Below are positions 15,317-32,535 of a stretch of DNA of 64,000 bases, in pieces (within the stretch, counting starts at the first letter, position 1; each line of letters opens with the position of its first letter). The translations under genes and the position numbers were made by a program. Source of the stretch: a virus; the UHGV virus genome UHGV-1682877. One strand, 5' to 3'. The notes under the pieces are model-generated. The model was given only the letters and a program-made list of their open reading frames with translations. It was not told where the DNA came from and made no database searches.

Positions 15317-15340
15317 TTAGACAGACACAGCAATCTTTAT

Positions 15341-15410
15341 ACAAGTAACGACATGCAGGTTCGATTCCTGTCTTTACGCATCTGTAAAGTAGCCTATTGG
15401 TAAGGTATTT
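15341..15410 (+). ncRNA. tRNA-like element without canonical cloverleaf (T-arm gcaggttcgattcctgt, then closed hairpin ctttac/gtaaag, then D-loop-like tattggtaa)
   Basis: T-arm consensus present but no acceptor or anticodon pairing could be found; same architecture as the element at 26395-26520. Confidence 0.3.
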
Positions 15411-15442
15411 ATTTTGTTTAAAGCTGTCTAGTAAATCTCAAT

Positions 15443-15877: not shown

Positions 15878-15956
15878 TAATGAAAGACACATACAGCAAT
15901 TTATTTAATATTATAAAAAATGGCAGAAAATTTTTATACAAGTGTCTTGTTTATAT

Positions 15957-16013
15957 ATTGCAGGCAGGTTAAAGCCCTGTGCGTCGCTGGTTCAAATCCA
16001 GCCTGTGATACCA
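15957..16013 (+). ncRNA. tRNA-like mini-element (T-arm gctggttcaaatccagc plus short hairpin; no D-arm found)
   Basis: T-arm consensus and terminal CCA seen, but no full cloverleaf could be built. Confidence 0.25.
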
Positions 16014-16014
16014 T

Positions 16015-16087
16015 TGCGGAGTAGAGAAACGGTTATCTCGCAACCCTCATAAGGTTGAGAAAGGTGGTTCGACTCCATCCTCTCGCA
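16015..16087 (+). tRNA. tRNA with anticodon CAT (Met or lysidine-Ile2 type)
   Basis: D-stem gaga/tctc, anticodon stem caacc/ggttg with loop cTCATaa, T-arm ggtggttcgactccatc; acceptor pairing imperfect, so ends are approximate. Confidence 0.6.
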
Positions 16088-16209
16088 GAGACATAATCAA
16101 CCACCTCCACGCGGTATGTCTTGGGTAAAGCGAACGGTTGAATGATTTTGGGTACATTTGGATAATTTAGTAGCCAAAAAAACTCCATAATATAATGGAG
16201 GGATGTATA

Positions 16210-24792: not shown

Positions 24793-24987
24793 ATGAATAA
24801 GATTATTTTTAAAGCTAAGAATTGGACTATGACTTTTAGAACTAGACAGCAAGCCCTTAATTTTATCCGTAAAAATTCCATTAATCCTTATACTGCCAAT
24901 ATTTTGGTTCTTATTGGTACTCAGGATGTATTTCATTTGGGTTCTCCTCGTGCAGATCAGTATTTTGGACTGAAAAGAAAAAATTGA
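24793..24987 (+). CDS. hypothetical protein
   Basis: 64-aa ORF; AGAGGAGAA SD. Confidence 0.5.
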   Translation: MNKIIFKAKNWTMTFRTRQQALNFIRKNSINPYTANILVLIGTQDVFHLGSPRADQYFGLKRKN

Positions 24988-25025
24988 AAATTTAAAAAAA
25001 ATATGATATAATATTTAAGGAAAGA
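24984..25025 (+). promoter_or_regulatory. promoter of tRNA array 2 (-35 TTGAAA 24984-24989, extended -10 TGATATAAT)
   Basis: 17-bp spacing. Confidence 0.6.
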
Positions 25026-25099
25026 CTTGTACAGCAAATAAAGCTTAAAAGCACTTGACTGGTAATCAAGAAGAAAATGAGTCTTGCTTAAATATTCAT

Positions 25100-25185
25100 G
25101 TGGGCGTGATGAAATAGGAAAACATATCGCACTTAAAATGCGCTGCTAATCTAGCTTGTGGGTTCGAGTCCCATCGCCCACACCA
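25100..25185 (+). tRNA. tRNA-Leu (anticodon TAA), type II; CCA encoded
   Basis: Acceptor gtgggcg/cgcccac, anticodon loop cTTAAAa, variable-arm hairpin gcta-atc-tagc, T-arm gtgggttcgagtcccat. Confidence 0.7.
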
Positions 25186-25250
25186 TCTTTAAAACTGATA
25201 CTCTTTACTATTAGTTTTAAAGATAACAATGAACTTGAGTTTACTGATAT

Positions 25251-25327
25251 GCGTCTGTAACTCAACTGGATAGAGTAACTGCCTTCTAAGCAGTAAGCCA
25301 GGGGTTCGAGTCCCTTCAGGCGTACCA
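25251..25327 (+). tRNA. tRNA-Arg (anticodon TCT); CCA encoded
   Basis: Acceptor gcgtctg/caggcgt, D-stem actc/gagt, anticodon stem actgc/gcagt with loop cTTCTAa, T-arm aggggttcgagtccctt. Confidence 0.8.
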
Positions 25328-25329
25328 AG

Positions 25330-25512
25330 CAGAACTATAATAGGCAACAAAAGGAAATAGCTGATGTGAAAGGCATCTTGTCTTGCTGACATGACAATAA
25401 ACTTTGAACGGGCGTATAATGCGTATCGTGCCTGCGGGTGTAGAGTCAGAAAAGTAGGGGAATAATTGAGGAGCAGCTATAGGTGAGGCCCCACCTCCAC
25501 CTTCCTTAATAT
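25330..25512 (+). ncRNA. GC-enriched non-coding segment between tRNA-Arg and tRNA-Ser; candidate structured RNA of unknown class
   Basis: No + strand ORF with SD; several GC-rich hairpins such as aggtgagg-cccc-acctccacc. Confidence 0.3.
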
Positions 25513-25604
25513 GGGGCAATGGCAGAGTTTGGCTTATTGCACTTGTCTTGAAAACAAGCAAACTAGCAATAGTTTCACTGGTTCAAATCCAGTTTGCCCC
25601 GCCA
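25513..25604 (+). tRNA. tRNA-Ser (anticodon TGA), type II; CCA encoded
   Basis: Acceptor ggggcaa/ttgcccc, anticodon stem cttgt/acaag with loop cTTGAAa, long variable arm, T-arm actggttcaaatccagt. Confidence 0.8.
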
Positions 25605-25608
25605 ATAA

Positions 25609-25682
25609 GCAGGTATAGTTTAATGATAGAACTCTGGACTTCCACTCCAGCGATGCGGGTTTGATTCCCGTTACTTGCTCCA
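25609..25682 (+). tRNA. tRNA-Gly (anticodon TCC); CCA encoded
   Basis: Acceptor gcaggta/tacttgc, anticodon stem ctgga/tccag with loop cTTCCAc, T-arm gcgggtttgattcccgt. Confidence 0.8.
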
Positions 25683-25745
25683 TAAAGATACTCACAGCAA
25701 TTTATTTTTTATAATGGGTATAAAAAAATAAAGTATCTTGTATTT

Positions 25746-25821
25746 GCTAACGTGGCGCAACAGGTAGCGCAGCGGCCTTGTAAACCGCAGGTTAAGAGTT
25801 CAAGTCTCTTCGTTAGCTCCA
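25746..25821 (+). tRNA. tRNA-Thr (anticodon TGT); CCA encoded
   Basis: Acceptor gctaacg/cgttagc, anticodon stem gcggc/accgc with loop cTTGTAa, T-arm aagagttcaagtctctt. Confidence 0.85.
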
Positions 25822-25823
25822 AT

Positions 25824-25899
25824 GGTTCGCTAGTTCATTAGGTAGAACACTTGCCTTTTAAGCAAGATGTGCTGGGTTCAAATCCCAGGCGAGCCACCA
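25824..25899 (+). tRNA. tRNA-Lys (anticodon TTT); CCA encoded
   Basis: Acceptor ggttcgc/gcgagcc, D-stem gttc/gaac, anticodon stem cttgc/gcaag with loop cTTTTAa, T-arm ctgggttcaaatcccag. Confidence 0.85.
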
Positions 25900-26274
25900 T
25901 TAGTCTTATCATACAGACGTAAAATAAATGAGTACCCCAGATAATGCTGAACTGGGTATCCGGGTATCGGGAGAATTAGTCTGGCAACTGTTGAAGCGAC
26001 GATACTGCGTGACCAGGCATAAGGGCGACCTAAGTCGTTAGCTATGGGTAAACAGGTTGATAGCCGCATAGTAAAATGTTTCCTTGCGTCATTAAAATGC
26101 AAGGCGTTATAGGAGAGACGGCGGAGCATTACTCATCTCCACTCCTTCTGCTACGAGAAGTAGAAAATCAAGGCTTCTGAGAAATGCTAATGAGAATGGT
26201 CAACCTCTGATTAAAAAAGGACTAAAGCTAGCTTAGGTTTTAGGTTATCCTCCTTACGAGGGAAAACCTTATTT
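25900..26274 (+). ncRNA. approximately 375-nt GC-enriched non-coding segment between tRNA-Lys and tRNA-Leu(CAA); candidate structured RNA of unknown class
   Basis: No credible + strand ORF; GC content visibly above surroundings; not tmRNA-like and lacks RNase P P4 motifs by eye. Confidence 0.3.
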
Positions 26275-26358
26275 GCCAGAATGTTGGAATTGGTAGACAA
26301 AGAAGTCTCAAAAACTTTCGCTTTATGCGTGCGGGTTCGAATCCCGCTTCTGGTACCA
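26275..26358 (+). tRNA. tRNA-Leu (anticodon CAA), type II; CCA encoded
   Basis: Acceptor gccagaa/ttctggt, D-loop gaattggtaga, anticodon stem gaagt/acttt with loop cTCAAAa, variable arm cgctttatgcgtg, T-arm gcgggttcgaatcccgc. Confidence 0.8.
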
Positions 26359-26394
26359 TTATATTTTTAAATTATTTATAAAGACCTTAACAGC

Positions 26395-26520
26395 AAAGAC
26401 TTGGACAGTAAATCCGTAGCTTAAAGTTGCGCAGGTTCAAATCCTGCCCTCCACACCATATGTGGAGGTAGAGAAGTGGTTAAACTCCGCGGAACCAAAA
26501 ACAAATGGTCTAGGAATTAT
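26395..26520 (+). ncRNA. candidate Y-RNA-like ncRNA with permuted tRNA-like module, immediately upstream of Ro60-like gene
   Basis: T-arm gcaggttcaaatcctgc (26431-26447), closed acceptor-like hairpin cctccaca-cca-tatgtggagg (26448-26468), D-arm-like gaga-agtggttaaa-ctc (26471-26487); terminator-like hairpin at 26522-26541. Confidence 0.35.
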
Positions 26521-26570
26521 TTCTCTCTTGCCTAAGAGAGAAAACTAAAAAACAAAAGGAGAAAGTTATT

Positions 26571-28094
26571 ATGGAAAATAAGATGCTTAATATTTTGAAG
26601 GAAAAGAATACTCATTCTATCACTGAGAACGGCGGTTTGACTTATAATTCTACTATGAATGGAATTATGGATTTGTTTGCTCTTGGTGGTGCTTATCGAA
26701 ATCGCTCAGATGATGATTGTATTTTTCTTTTTAAGAAGGCTTTTGAGGAAGATATTTCTTATGCTTTGAAGTGTCTCTTTTATTTGCGAGACGTACGCGG
26801 TGGACAGGGAGAACGCAGATTTTTTAAGGTCGTAACTTCTTGGTTGGCAGTTAATCACACCGAGGAAATGCGTAGAAATCTGAAGTATGTTCCTGAGTAT
26901 GGTCGCTGGGATGATTTGTATGCTTTTGTTGATACTCCGCTTGAGGCAGATGCTTTTAAGACTATGTATCATCAGCTTGCTCTTGATGTTCAGTGTAAAA
27001 CTCCTTCTCTTTTGGCTAAGTGGTTGAAGTCTGAAAATACTTCTTCTGCAGAATCTCGTATGCTTGGAGCTAAAACCAGAATGGCTTTTAATATGTCTCC
27101 TAAGCAGTATCGCAAGATTCTCTCTATTCTTCGTGAAAGAATTAGAGTTTTGGAAAGACTGATGAGTGAAAACCGTTGGGATGAAATTGAATTTGATAAG
27201 ATTCCTTCTAAGGCAGGTCTAAAGTATCGCAATGCTTTTGCAAAGCACGATATTGAAAGAGAAAAGTCTAATAAGGTAACTTATGAAGAGTTTGTAAAGG
27301 ATTCTAATACTAAGGTCAATGCTGATACTTTGAATCCCGCAGATGTAGTTCATGCTGTTGTTTCTAAATTTCCCTATTATAGAGGAAATTTTAATGGAAC
27401 TGATGTGGAGAGAGCTGCACTCAATAAGTATTGGGATAATCTAAAGGATTATTTTAATAATGCTGTTTTTGACGGTGTTGCTGTCGTTGATACTTCTGGT
27501 TCTATGTGTGGTTTTTATGGTAGTGAGAAAACTATTGCACCTATTGATGTAGCTATTTCTCTTGGTATGTATTGTGCTGAGAAGTGTAATCCCAATTCTC
27601 CCTGGTATGGACATTATATTACTTTTTCCCGAACTGCAAGATTGGTACCTGTTGAAGGTATTGATTTTGTTGATAAGGTGCGTAGAATTTATCAAAAGAA
27701 TCTTTGTGAGAATACCAACATTAAAAGTATTTTTGATTTGCTATTGAGCAATGCTATTAAATATAATATTCCTAATGAAGAAATGCCTAAAAACATTGTA
27801 ATCATTAGTGATATGGAATTTGATTATTGCGCTGGTTACTATAATAGTGATGAATACAAGTCTGAAATGGAAAAGATTATGCAAGTTTGGAACTCTCATG
27901 GTTACACTACTCCACATTTGATTTTCTGGAATGTTGACGCTCGAAATGATAATATTCCCATGAAGATGAAGGATGGTATTACTTTTATTTCTGGTTATTC
28001 TGCGGTAACTTATGAAATGTTGATGACTGGTAAAACTGGTTTTGATTTGGTTTTGGAAAAGTTGAACAATAAGAGATATGAGGTAATCAAGTAA
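26571..28094 (+). CDS. vWA-domain protein with Ro60/Rsr-like (TROVE + vWA) architecture
   Basis: 507 aa; MIDAS-type VVDTSGSM about 300 aa from N-terminus; N-terminal ENGGLTY ... LGGAYR resembles TROVE start; AAAAGGAGAA SD. Confidence 0.5.
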   Translation: MENKMLNILKEKNTHSITENGGLTYNSTMNGIMDLFALGGAYRNRSDDDCIFLFKKAFEEDISYALKCLFYLRDVRGGQGERRFFKVVTSWLAVNHTEEMRRNLKYVPEYGRWDDLYAFVDTPLEADAFKTMYHQLALDVQCKTPSLLAKWLKSENTSSAESRMLGAKTRMAFNMSPKQYRKILSILRERIRVLERLMSENRWDEIEFDKIPSKAGLKYRNAFAKHDIEREKSNKVTYEEFVKDSNTKVNADTLNPADVVHAVVSKFPYYRGNFNGTDVERAALNKYWDNLKDYFNNAVFDGVAVVDTSGSMCGFYGSEKTIAPIDVAISLGMYCAEKCNPNSPWYGHYITFSRTARLVPVEGIDFVDKVRRIYQKNLCENTNIKSIFDLLLSNAIKYNIPNEEMPKNIVIISDMEFDYCAGYYNSDEYKSEMEKIMQVWNSHGYTTPHLIFWNVDARNDNIPMKMKDGITFISGYSAVTYEMLMTGKTGFDLVLEKLNNKRYEVIK

Positions 28095-29585: not shown

Positions 29586-29604
29586 ATAAAGGAGTTTGAT
29601 ATTT

Positions 29605-30873
29605 ATGGCATACTATGGTTTAGTAACTAAAATTGAAAATGTAAGAAAAGACCCTAATTCTGATAGACTCTATTTGGCTGATTGTTTTAGAGAAGGAGTT
29701 ATTGTAGGCCCTAATATGAAGGAAAGCGAGTTGGTTCTTTATCTTCCTACTGATGGAGCTATTGAGCGTTGGTTTGGTGATGAGTTTAAACTTTTCCGCA
29801 AGAATTTAGATGGTACCGCGCAAGGTGGTTATTTGGAAAATAATGCTCATATTAGAGCAATTAAGCTAAGAGGTAATGAATCTTCTGGTATTGTTATTTC
29901 TTATTCTACTATTGTTGAGCATTTTGGTGAGCAAAATTGGAAAGATGGCGATCAGGTCACTGAAATTAATAATAAGCTATTTTGTTATAAATATATTCCT
30001 AAACCTTCGGCTATTCCTCGCACTACTCCTAAAACTTCTTATAAAGGTCGTAAAGCAGCTGGAATTAAGTATCCTGATTTTGCCATGCATATTGATACTG
30101 CCCAATTAGCTTACAATCTTGGAATTTTTAGACCTGGAGATAAAATTAATCTAACCCTTAAAATGCATGGAACTAGCCAGCGTAGTGCATATACTTGGGC
30201 AGAATATCCTATGTCTTGGTTTAGAAAGCTATTTCACATGAAACCTAAGAGAAAGTTGCAGTATGTTTTAGGTACTCGTAGAACTGTTGTTACTACTGAT
30301 GGGGTAGGTTATTATGGTAATGACAAATTTAGATTTAGTCACCATGAAGCTTTAAAACCTTATCTCGATGAAGGTATGGAAGTTTTTTATGAAGTAGTTG
30401 GTTGGTATGGAGCAAAAGAAAATGAAACTATTATGCCAATTGTAGATAATAGTAAAATTAATGACAAGAAATTTATGAAAAAGTTTGGTAAGTATACTAC
30501 TTTTTCTTATGGTTGTACTCCTGGTCATTCTGCAATGTGGATTTATAGAATTACTTCTCATAATGGTGAATATGAATATTCTCCAGAGGAAATTACTACT
30601 TGGTGTAATGAATATGGTTTTAATCGTGTTCCTATTATTGAGGATTTTGAATTTACTACTGTTGATGACTTGCTCGCTAAAATTGACAAATATTTTGAAG
30701 ATATTGTTGACCCAGTTGGTTTAACTCATGTTAAAGAAGGTGTAGTAGTTAGAATTGCTAATAGACGTACTTTTACTGCATTAAAACAAAAAACCTGGGA
30801 GTTTAAAGTCCTTGAAGGTCTAGTTAAAGATACTGAAACCCAGCCCGATATGGAAGAAGCACAGGAGGTTTAA
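29605..30873 (+). CDS. ATP-dependent RNA ligase-like protein (Rnl2/Rnl5-type KxHGT motif) with N-terminal extra domain
   Basis: KMHGTS resembles nucleotidyltransferase motif I of T4 Rnl2 (KIHGTN); N-terminal region has OB/tRNA-binding-like motif IKLRGNESSGIV; ATG 29605 after AAAGGAG. Confidence 0.5.
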   Translation: MAYYGLVTKIENVRKDPNSDRLYLADCFREGVIVGPNMKESELVLYLPTDGAIERWFGDEFKLFRKNLDGTAQGGYLENNAHIRAIKLRGNESSGIVISYSTIVEHFGEQNWKDGDQVTEINNKLFCYKYIPKPSAIPRTTPKTSYKGRKAAGIKYPDFAMHIDTAQLAYNLGIFRPGDKINLTLKMHGTSQRSAYTWAEYPMSWFRKLFHMKPKRKLQYVLGTRRTVVTTDGVGYYGNDKFRFSHHEALKPYLDEGMEVFYEVVGWYGAKENETIMPIVDNSKINDKKFMKKFGKYTTFSYGCTPGHSAMWIYRITSHNGEYEYSPEEITTWCNEYGFNRVPIIEDFEFTTVDDLLAKIDKYFEDIVDPVGLTHVKEGVVVRIANRRTFTALKQKTWEFKVLEGLVKDTETQPDMEEAQEV

Positions 30874-31725: not shown

Positions 31726-31770
31726 ATTAAGGGCAAAGATTAAGATCTTTTGCCCTTAATTTATTTTTTT
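31726..31770 (+). terminator. rho-independent terminator (ttaagggcaaaagat / atcttttgcccttaa + T-run)
   Basis: Read directly. Confidence 0.7.
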
Positions 31771-31805
31771 AAAAATTTATATTATAATATATATAGAAAG
31801 TTAAG
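31762..31805 (+). promoter_or_regulatory. sigma70-like promoter (-10 TATAAT 31783-31788) with leader
   Basis: Family consensus. Confidence 0.55.
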
Positions 31806-31821
31806 AAAGGAATTGATATTT

Positions 31822-32535
31822 ATGAATAAGAGTAAAGTTTATTGTTTTACTGACCTTCATGGCAATTCAAATTTGTTTAAGCAGATTAAAAATTTCATTC
31901 AAGCAGAAGATAAAGTGTTCGTGCTGGGTGATGTAATTGACAGAGGGACAGAAGGTTGGAAAATACTTAAAGAAATTTTAAAAGATGAAAGATTTACTCT
32001 TCTTAAAGGAAATCATGAACAAATGTTAGTAGATTCTGGAAGAGAATTTTTAAAAAATGAAAGATGTCTATATGGAGATGATATTTATCGTCACATGAAT
32101 AATGGAGGTTTATCTACTTTACTAGACTGGTCTAAAGAAAAAAATGCTATTGAGTATTTAAATTTAATTAATAAACTTCCAGTTTATGAACAATACACTA
32201 ATAAAAATGGAATTAAAATTCATTTAAGTCATGCAGGTTTTTCTCCTAATAATATTTCTGGTGATGAATTTGATTTTCTTTGGAATAGATTACATTATAA
32301 ATTTAGATGTTTAATTAATCCAAATGAATTAATTATTCATGGCCATACCCCAATTCCTCTAATGATAGAAGATATAGGAGAATTTCGCAATCCTCCCAAA
32401 TATGAAGGTGGAGCTTGTTGGTATAATAATAATCAAAAGGTTAATCTTGATTTAGGTACTCATTGGAGTAAGCAAATTATCCTTTTTGATTTAGATACTT
32501 TTGATGAACATATCTTTTCTGCTCAAGGAGAATAA
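31822..32535 (+). CDS. calcineurin-like metallophosphoesterase
   Basis: TDLHGN, GDVIDRG and GNHE motifs; internal ATG of track ORF 31750..32535 follows AAGAAAGGA SD. Confidence 0.7.
   Translation: MNKSKVYCFTDLHGNSNLFKQIKNFIQAEDKVFVLGDVIDRGTEGWKILKEILKDERFTLLKGNHEQMLVDSGREFLKNERCLYGDDIYRHMNNGGLSTLLDWSKEKNAIEYLNLINKLPVYEQYTNKNGIKIHLSHAGFSPNNISGDEFDFLWNRLHYKFRCLINPNELIIHGHTPIPLMIEDIGEFRNPPKYEGGACWYNNNQKVNLDLGTHWSKQIILFDLDTFDEHIFSAQGE

Follow-up and report, generated by a model that had tools for sequence, protein, structure and literature searches.

The genome of UHGV virus UHGV-1682877, of which a stretch of 64,000 nucleotides (nt) is analyzed here (the window), carries a tRNA array interrupted by two segments rich in guanine and cytosine (GC). 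The longer of these, here called island 2, very probably represents a conserved structured RNA. Comparison with relatives from other phage tRNA arrays further indicates that it is probably the gene of a stable structured noncoding RNA of about 375 nt, from a phage family not in Rfam, that is released by tRNA processing and pairs with itself. This evidence comes from helices that covary across the family and from a 10-nt palindrome whose symmetry is maintained while its sequence varies.

Two islands within a tRNA array

The array in question, tRNA array 2, comprises seven tRNAs on the + strand (25100-26358; ARAGORN and Rfam). An earlier reading of the sequence (the original prediction) had placed two GC-enriched, non-coding islands within it and proposed that they may be structured RNAs processed with the tRNAs. 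The coordinates proposed there are correct, as the island edges coincide with tRNA ends called by ARAGORN:

25328-25512, + strand: island 1, lying exactly between tRNA-Arg(TCT) at 25251-25327 and tRNA-Ser(TGA) at 25513-25604
25900-26274, + strand: island 2, the entire RNA unit, bounded by the 3' end of tRNA-Lys(TTT) at 25824-25899 and the 5' end of tRNA-Leu(CAA) at 26275-26358

The GC fractions of islands 1 and 2 (0.443 and 0.427, the mean of the window being 0.303) place both within the top 1.8% of same-size windows, in agreement with the claim that they are richer in GC than the flanking DNA; elsewhere in the array the other spacers have values of 0.19-0.24 and the tRNAs of 0.46-0.54. The further claim that no plausible + strand open reading frame (ORF) with a Shine-Dalgarno sequence is present also stands, the longest being of 37 and 34 amino acids (aa) and lacking such a sequence. 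On the minus strand, ORFs of 81 and 83 aa overlap tRNA genes in antisense. The 83-aa ORF, that of island 2, has no Pfam match, and its sole relative among 5.8 billion proteins comes from the same species (94% identity), so that the minus-strand protein gene named in the original prediction as a refuting possibility was not borne out; on either strand, a test for protein coding found neither a conserved open frame nor homologues beyond the species.

One part of the original prediction did not survive. The islands had been described as containing many GC hairpins, but they fold no better than dinucleotide-shuffled sequences (z scores of +0.64 and -0.38 for islands 1 and 2, neither significant). 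Because the minimum free energies do not improve on those of the shuffles, GC hairpins alone are no evidence of structure, and evidence for structure is instead to be drawn from comparison with relatives. By that standard the structured-RNA proposal holds for island 2, which is conserved, covarying and bounded by tRNAs, and is not demonstrated for island 1.

Members and distribution of the island 2 family

Relatives were sought by collecting 80 loci (L001-L080) via the protein encoded downstream. Among these only L001 (98% protein identity) has both islands, as judged by blastn and nhmmer, and island 2 is 96-98% identical in the same-species contigs L001, L107, L114 and L177-L181. A weak nhmmer match in L061 contains two motifs of island 2, GGAGAGACG and GGUYAUCCUC..AAAACC, spaced as they are there. 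Gapped patterns made from these motifs were scanned over IMG/VR and the JGI/ENA metagenomes and were followed by an nhmmer profile, which yielded about 21 distinct family members. Every member sits in a phage tRNA array of a viral contig and in the orientation of the tRNAs, and only 0-4 nt separate its end from the following tRNA in the window, L087, L103 and L110. The members fall into three types:

Window type: the window, L001, L107, L114 and L177-L181
Type A: element with its own promoter, downstream of a conserved small ORF and a pseudoknot-like segment
Type B: element directly 3' of tRNA-Ile(TAT)

A covariance model (R1) built from 12 members, with all window-type sequences left out, nevertheless finds positions 26108-26276 of the window along the full 180 positions of the model (54.6 bits; E 3.6e-12 for a search of 1.5 Mb), and has no other match in the window or in L002-L080. 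The same segment is found by the nhmmer profile with E 7e-36.

The small ORF of type A encodes 28-41 aa with the core VFSSSWSRVxQA..WQ, is preceded by a promoter and a Shine-Dalgarno sequence of its own, and lies about 200-360 nt upstream of the conserved domain (L082, L085, L087, L088, L100, L101, L103, L105, L110 and L061). Its changes are synonymous, which shows that it is translated. As tRNA-Ser follows the RNA in several of these loci, a role as leader peptide is conceivable. Behind the small ORF comes a segment resembling an H-type pseudoknot (GGCGC..UUGCGG..GCGCC..CCGC), which matches the Rfam abiF motif with 27 bits, under the gathering score of 37. A search of the window for a homologue of the small protein gave none. 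Profiles made from the 5' regions of types A and B likewise have no match there, so that the 5' 210 nt of island 2 are lineage-specific. The closest relatives by the downstream protein (L002, 72% identity) have small ORFs rather than islands in the equivalent gaps. In one member, L118, a drum RNA (RF02958; 2905-2999, - strand; 49.4 bits, gathering score 43) is inserted in the 5' region.

Structure of the conserved 3' domain

The features of island 2 that emerge from these comparisons are as follows:

25900-26107, + strand: lineage-specific 5' domain, with no detectable homology to the 5' regions of other members
26024-26039 and 26082-26104, + strand: hairpins of the 5' domain, in which within-species substitutions keep pairing
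26108-26276, + strand: conserved 3' domain of about 170 nt (R1, nhmmer and the 21-member alignment)
26112-26145, + strand: P1, GGAG (26112-15) with CUCC (26142-45), around an inner hairpin and the purine-rich internal loop AGACG
26146-26165, + strand: P2 hairpin, UUCUGCU/AGUAGAA
26225-26234, + strand: 10-nt self-complementary block AAGCUAGCUU, the proposed intermolecular dimerization duplex
26236-26274, + strand: 3' module, GGUUUU and the stem AGGUU (26242-46)/AACCU (26265-69)

The covariation analysis across homologous phages that the original prediction had proposed as a check was carried out, and several helices of island 2 covary. In pair counts from the model alignment of 21 sequences, standard pairs fill 91.8% of cells. 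Shuffling the columns brings this down to 79%, with 0 of 500 shuffles attaining 91.8%, and sliding the partners by 1-3 columns brings it down to 39-51%. For covariation the score is 0.40 versus 0.05-0.09. P1 is paired in 100% of the sequences, with one two-sided change. The place of P2 is taken in most members by hairpins of unrelated sequence (AUUC/GAAU, CUCU/AGAG, CCA/UGG, UCCA/UGGA, GCG/CGC and GCUAA/UUAGC), and in the L061 group P2 is weak or not predicted. There follow an A-rich linker, AAAAUUAAAGCCCUUAGAAA in the family and AAAAUCAAGGCUUCUGAGAAA in the window, and a hairpin region of variable sequence that leads to the 10-nt block. Beyond the block the family has an invariant GGGUUU and a terminal stem, AUGGUU/AACCAU, whose second pair is U-A, A-U or C-G and which encloses AUCC, a covarying 4-bp hairpin (U-A, C-G, A-U) and AAAA. 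In the window this stem likewise encloses AUCC, the hairpin UCCU/AGGG with a UACG loop (26251-62) and AAAA, and the module ends in UAUUU immediately 5' of tRNA-Leu. No reading frame remains open in all members, and the differences in block length are not multiples of 3. A long-range pairing of AAAGCCC with GGGUUU was considered and dropped, since GGGUUU is invariant and its partner changes without compensation.

Comparison within the species adds to this. Across nine contigs, 9 of 9 substitutions in predicted stems keep pairing, among them G26025A, C26026U, C26029U, C26083U and G26150A in island 2, the last of which turns a G-U pair of P2 into A-U. This support is modest (of the order of 1 in 100-500), as transitions keep pairing roughly half the time by chance. 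The 5' domain begins with a degenerate form of a leader motif described below, UUAGUCU..ACAGACG, and the first 7 nt of the island are complementary to GGACUAA at 26218-26224, a possible pairing read from the letters.

A covarying palindrome

Each family member has a 10-nt block at a fixed position, separated by a single base from the GG(G)UUU that follows, and in every case the block equals its own reverse complement. Ten different decamers fill this position: GAAUGCAUUC, GGAUGCAUUC, CAGUGCAUUG, CAAUGCAUUG, CAAUAUAUUG, GAAAGCUUUC, CAGAGCUCUG, CAUACGUAUG, CAUUGCAAUG and, in the window, AAGCUAGCUU. All five symmetric pairs of the decamer are 100% complementary in the 21 sequences, and four of the five change on both sides, including the adjacent central pair (GC 11, AU 4, UA 4, CG 2). 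Among random 23-mers of equal composition, 0.9% contain a palindrome of at least 10 nt. AT-rich palindromes of at least 10 nt are common in this genome, and the argument thus rests on comparison across members and not on the window alone.

Pairing within one chain is excluded for such a block because the adjacent central bases sterically cannot pair with each other, and a hairpin does not suffice as an explanation because a 3-bp hairpin needs no palindromic loop. In the OLE and GOLLD RNAs, palindromic tetranucleotides that switch between palindromes mark symmetric intermolecular kissing contacts (Kretsch et al., PMC12286853). By the same signature, a good likelihood exists that two copies of the island 2 RNA pair via the palindrome as a homodimer. 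The module may also be portable between RNAs. At L096 an otherwise different GC-rich RNA of about 330 nt (1000-1371), which follows a permuted tRNA-like element, has of this family the 3' module only, ending in the palindrome CUUGCGCAAG, GGGGUUU and the stem-loop; since this RNA is otherwise different, the dimerization module seemingly moves between RNAs.

The position of island 2 suggests how the RNA would be made. It would be transcribed with the tRNA array, either from a promoter ahead of the array or from a promoter-like site within island 1. Release by tRNA processing enzymes is proposed because the RNA abuts tRNA-Lys on its 5' side and tRNA-Leu on its 3' side: processing of the tRNA-Lys 3' end would set the 5' end of the RNA, and an RNase P cut at tRNA-Leu would set its 3' end. 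Two copies would then pair in antiparallel fashion via the palindrome, giving a symmetric homodimer or some larger assembly. The upstream promoter is the following, and its motif recurs before many genes in relatives:

24984-25012, + strand: phage-type promoter before tRNA array 2, TTGAAA, 17 nt, TGATATAAT

Comparison with known RNA families

A search of the whole window with cmscan and Rfam 15, also a check proposed in the original prediction, finds no family at gathering score in either island. At E <= 10, over 24900-26650 only, no match overlaps the islands, and cmscan of the homologues gives no match over the conserved family domain. Neither ARAGORN nor the Rfam models for transfer-messenger RNA (tmRNA) match the islands. 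This negative can be trusted because ARAGORN does detect tmRNAs in the arrays of two relatives (L017, 946-1255; L057, 309-657). RNase P RNA, 6S RNA, signal recognition particle RNA, group I and II introns, known ribozymes and riboswitches are likewise without an Rfam match in the islands, and the impression by eye that these resemble neither tmRNA nor RNase P RNA is upheld. The sole weak match of the Rfam YrlA model (18.8 bits) spans tRNA-Thr and tRNA-Lys rather than an island. The T-loop motif is absent from both islands on inspection of the sequence, and the GOLLD and ROOL models match neither the islands nor the family domain even at E <= 10. BLAST matches to 50,697 GenBank phages are limited to tRNAs. 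No terminator-like site was found on the + strand in 24500-26700 when intrinsic terminators were sought.

Island 1

Island 1 is species-restricted and is found only in L001, L107, L114 and L178-L181. No homologue outside the species was found by blastn and nhmmer against all loci, by pattern scan or with the type A profile. A weak match in L061 (E 0.36) lies within a small protein-coding ORF and was not confirmed by profile search. Two features overlap within the island:

25391-25420, + strand: sigma-70-like promoter match, ATGACA, 18 nt, TATAAT (11/12 consensus)
25412-25424, + strand: hairpin GCGUA-UAA-UGCGU, overlapping the -10 hexamer of the promoter match

The promoter match equals three nearby phage promoters in quality, and its TATAAT is kept in L001. 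The island is most likely a species-specific spacer transcript with an internal promoter and a few selected hairpins, and it is not demonstrated as a structured RNA gene because no relative outside the species carries it.

It is unlikely that island 1 is instead a structured RNA in its own right, or that it supplies the 5' domain of a split RNA of which island 2 is the 3' domain and whose linker between the islands would be occupied by four tRNAs. Several features are compatible with such an arrangement. The GC content of island 1 matches that of island 2; its ends are joined by predicted closing stems, AAGGAA/UUCCUU and UAGCUG/CAGCUA; all four substitutions in its hairpin (G25412A, C25413U, A25416G and G25421A; 4/4) keep pairing; its 3' hairpin, GAGG..GGCCCCACCUC, resembles the hairpin upstream of the conserved domain in the type B locus L086; and tRNAs sometimes occur in the linker of GOLLD (PMC12286853). 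Weighing against it, island 1 is without a homologue outside the species, the duplex energy between the two islands is no better than that of shuffles, the folding z score is that given above (+0.64), and the covarying hairpin is covered by the 11/12 promoter match. A pattern scan for TTGAGG..GGCCCCACCTC returned 55 chance matches in addition to L086.

Weighing the explanations for island 2

Several points count against reading island 2 as the gene of a stable, self-pairing RNA. Its single-sequence fold is no better than those of shuffles (z = -0.38), and the family is small and rare, a scan of one genome per species over 185,579 species giving no member. The pair counts come from an alignment fitted to the model and are for that reason biased towards structure; the palindrome lies outside the model. 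Some of the proposed pairs are broken in part of the family, in some cases through a register problem in the alignment of type B members. Support for the 5' 210 nt of island 2, and for all of island 1, comes from near-identical contigs. Finally, the transcript and its ends are read from the sequence layout, and dimerization likewise from sequence.

Among the alternatives for island 2, a cis-acting leader or attenuator, similar to a riboswitch, in which the terminal stem-loop conditionally terminates transcription before the downstream tRNA or gene, has a distinctly low probability. Type A relatives do have their own promoter and a preceding small ORF that is possibly a leader peptide, several of them are followed by tRNA-Ser, and L082-type loci have AUAUUUUUU behind the terminal stem, ahead of a gene, with a U-run in some relatives; GGGUUU has, moreover, an alternative pairing with AAACC. 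The window and type B are without a leader ORF, however, and in the window only UAUUU separates the stem from the tRNA, with no + strand terminator-like site found. Nor would the downstream genes be expected to vary between members as they do, a simple attenuator would have no use for the covarying 10-nt palindrome, and a length of about 340-375 nt is very large for a leader.

A perfect palindrome is of course symmetric in duplex DNA too, and the AT-rich palindromes common in this genome lend some color to the idea that the palindrome, or the island, acts as DNA, as a site of protein binding, recombination or replication. This is very improbable. Symmetry is kept while the sequence differs in almost every lineage, which argues against a conserved sequence-specific protein site, and five G-U cells occur in the decamer alignment. 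As G-U would be an A-C mismatch on the opposite strand, these point to pairing in the + strand RNA rather than in DNA. Covariation of the surrounding helices is, moreover, strand-specific, and in every case the element is oriented as the tRNAs are. The least probable reading is that the islands are a real minus-strand protein gene or functionless decaying remnants: the 83- and 81-aa minus-strand ORFs exist and one is called as a gene in some assemblies, but, in addition to the lack of Pfam matches and of relatives beyond the species and the antisense course into tRNA genes described above, no other ORF of at least 90 aa in the surveyed region (about 13.5-42 kb) is a credible minus-strand gene, and the 3' domain is conserved, with compensatory changes, to relatives whose Ro60-like proteins are about 55% identical.

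The neighboring permuted tRNA-like element and Ro60-fold gene

Downstream of the array lie further features concerned with RNA:

26381-26515, + strand: permuted tRNA-Tyr-like, YrlA-type element (covarying alignment)
26571-28094, + strand: Ro60/TROVE plus von Willebrand factor A (vWA)-like protein (Pfam DUF2828 and DUF7788)
29596-30873: RNA ligase, downstream of the Ro60-like gene
31750-32535: calcineurin-like metallophosphoesterase, likewise downstream
34915-36186: PIN-PhoH protein, likewise downstream

The element at 26381-26515, missed by ARAGORN and by the Rfam tRNA and YrlA models, runs from a closing strand (AGACCUU) through an anticodon arm (GUA), a long variable arm, a T arm and an acceptor 3' strand with ACCA to a loop, the acceptor 5' strand, UA, a D arm and the second strand of the closing stem. 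Covariation is seen in all four stems (acceptor, D, T and closing) across L056, L060 and L063-L078. The element is present in L114 and missing from the near-identical L001 and L107. Like YrlA, it places a T arm, an acceptor-like stem-loop and a D arm within a stem formed by the 5' and 3' ends, and it lies on the same strand as, and 55 nt upstream of, a Ro60-fold gene; this arrangement fits the criteria for Y RNAs of PMC4201824. Unlike YrlA, it keeps the anticodon arm (GUA), the long variable arm, a 7-bp acceptor stem and ACCA, and the GNCGAA motif is not seen in it. Because these tRNA parts are complete, the element is interpreted as a full permuted tRNA-Tyr, which could yield a two-piece tRNA after RNase P cleavage.

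The protein encoded at 26571-28094 belongs to PHROG 850, "RNA-binding protein." Searches of the PDB by sequence only with this DUF2828 protein find nothing. With an AlphaFold2 model (predicted local distance difference test score 74.5), the top 11 Foldseek matches in the PDB are all Ro60/TROVE proteins, including phage Ro60, and are full length (E 2e-7 to 1.5e-3, ten of the 11 at <= 3e-5). The protein also has a DxSGS metal ion-dependent adhesion site motif. On the strength of this model it is assigned a Ro60/TROVE plus vWA fold. The ligase, phosphoesterase and PIN-PhoH genes suggest an RNA repair or quality-control cluster, and the locus as a whole looks like an RNA-maintenance module. The Ro60-like gene and the island 2 family occur together only in the window type and in L061, however, so that the two have no general link.

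Other features of the arrays

A strand-specific leader motif, AG[AG][CT]-N3-6-[ACT][AG]CAGCAA, in many cases begins no more than 8 nt behind a tRNA. The motif occurs in the window at 15319, 15885, 16849, 17242, 25023, 25686 and 26382, with degenerate copies at 25330 and 25900, and in 756 kb it has 88 matches on the gene strand versus 4 on the other. In L001-L080 every copy is upstream of the Ro60-like gene (upstream of position 4001). The exact complement of its first 6 nt occurs 45-155 nt downstream in 56 of 70 distinct copies, as compared with about 3.5% expected, and often ends about 12-22 nt before the next tRNA or tmRNA. The motif marks a conserved leader hairpin that covaries at its base, and it may serve as a signal for processing or as the binding site of a protein.

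In tRNA array 1, further tRNA-like fragments can be read at 15317-15430 and 15945-16015. One consists of a T arm, a hairpin and a D arm within the closing stem TAGACAG/CTGTCTA; another is an isolated T arm with ACCA just before tRNA-Met. At 16876-16948 of the window ARAGORN calls a tRNA with a four-base anticodon (tgaa) in an 8-nt anticodon loop (Rfam tRNA, 53 bits), which may be a quadruplet-decoding or frameshift-suppressor tRNA, and an ORF for a GIY-YIG endonuclease lies within array 1 (16195-16842). Directly upstream of array 2, at 22630-24631, a radical S-adenosylmethionine gene is followed by that of a Cys-rich protein of 249 aa (PF27846, tSAM_targ_Cxxx_rpt), a pair that looks like a phage peptide-modification system similar to those for ribosomally synthesized and post-translationally modified peptides.

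Many of L002-L059 have amber-suppressor tRNA(CUA) genes in the same arrays, and the presence of these suppressors suggests stop-codon recoding in the relatives; there are none among the 17 tRNAs of the window. Between the window and L001, which are otherwise 96-100% identical, tRNA-Thr (25746-25821 and 3331-3406, respectively) differs at 11 of 76 positions, with compensatory stem changes, and L001 has a 54-nt insertion after tRNA-Ser (3137-3190). Differences of this kind in near-identical contigs indicate that array units evolve or are exchanged independently. Further, the presence of a Ro60-fold protein, a permuted tRNA-like partner and leader hairpins suggests that phage tRNA arrays are mixed RNA operons rather than lists of tRNAs.

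Island 2 and self-assembling RNAs

GOLLD and ROOL are large RNAs of phages and prophages, found by tRNA islands, that self-assemble via covarying contacts (PMC12286853). The island 2 family resembles them in being encoded by phages in or beside tRNA arrays and, in the case of GOLLD, in combining a conserved 3' region with a variable 5' region. In all three, covarying adjacent bases within a self-complementary patch imply contacts between identical chains, for island 2 on the evidence of sequence. The differences are also considerable. The island 2 RNA, at about 340-375 nt, is smaller than GOLLD (>800 nt) and ROOL (about 580 nt), and its family uses a full 10-nt block where GOLLD and ROOL have several kissing loops of 2-4 nt. 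As only one self-complementary interface is seen in the island 2 family, a dimer is expected rather than a cage, and membership in the GOLLD or ROOL families is excluded because their Rfam models do not match.

A palindrome that switches between palindromes across homologues, the signature of a symmetric intermolecular duplex, is also known from OLE and from the dimerization initiation site of human immunodeficiency virus type 1. The island 2 family is unrelated to either of these in sequence, context and size, and its palindrome apparently lies between helices rather than in a hairpin loop. Another precedent is provided by "species 1 and 2" (rnaC and rnaD) of phage T4, small stable RNAs from the T4 tRNA cluster that are co-transcribed and processed with the tRNAs. 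These are shorter than the island 2 RNA; to our knowledge, no covarying palindrome has been reported in them. From IMG/VR, 8,495 unnamed short candidate motifs were predicted (PMC10690425), and pieces of the island 2 family may be among them.

To judge from its context, the island 2 RNA most likely takes part in the tRNA and RNA-maintenance program of the phage, as a self-assembling particle comparable to GOLLD or ROOL. A broader proposal, tentative and on balance doubtful, is that island 2 represents a new class of self-assembling phage RNA, a small counterpart of GOLLD and ROOL that associates via a 10-bp symmetric duplex, is made from tRNA precursors, and works with the Ro60-like protein, the permuted tRNA-Tyr/Y RNA, the RNA ligase and the phosphoesterase, with the AGAC..ACAGCAA leader hairpin as a shared signal for protein recognition or processing.

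Self-assembling natural RNAs were thought rare until the cryo-electron microscopy structures of OLE, ROOL and GOLLD appeared in 2025, and two of these three are phage RNAs beside tRNA islands. At about 350 nt, the RNAs of the island 2 family are easily transcribed in vitro, and with a single clear covarying dimerization element they make a direct test possible. The family would thereby offer a tractable route to understanding why phages put self-associating RNAs in their tRNA arrays.

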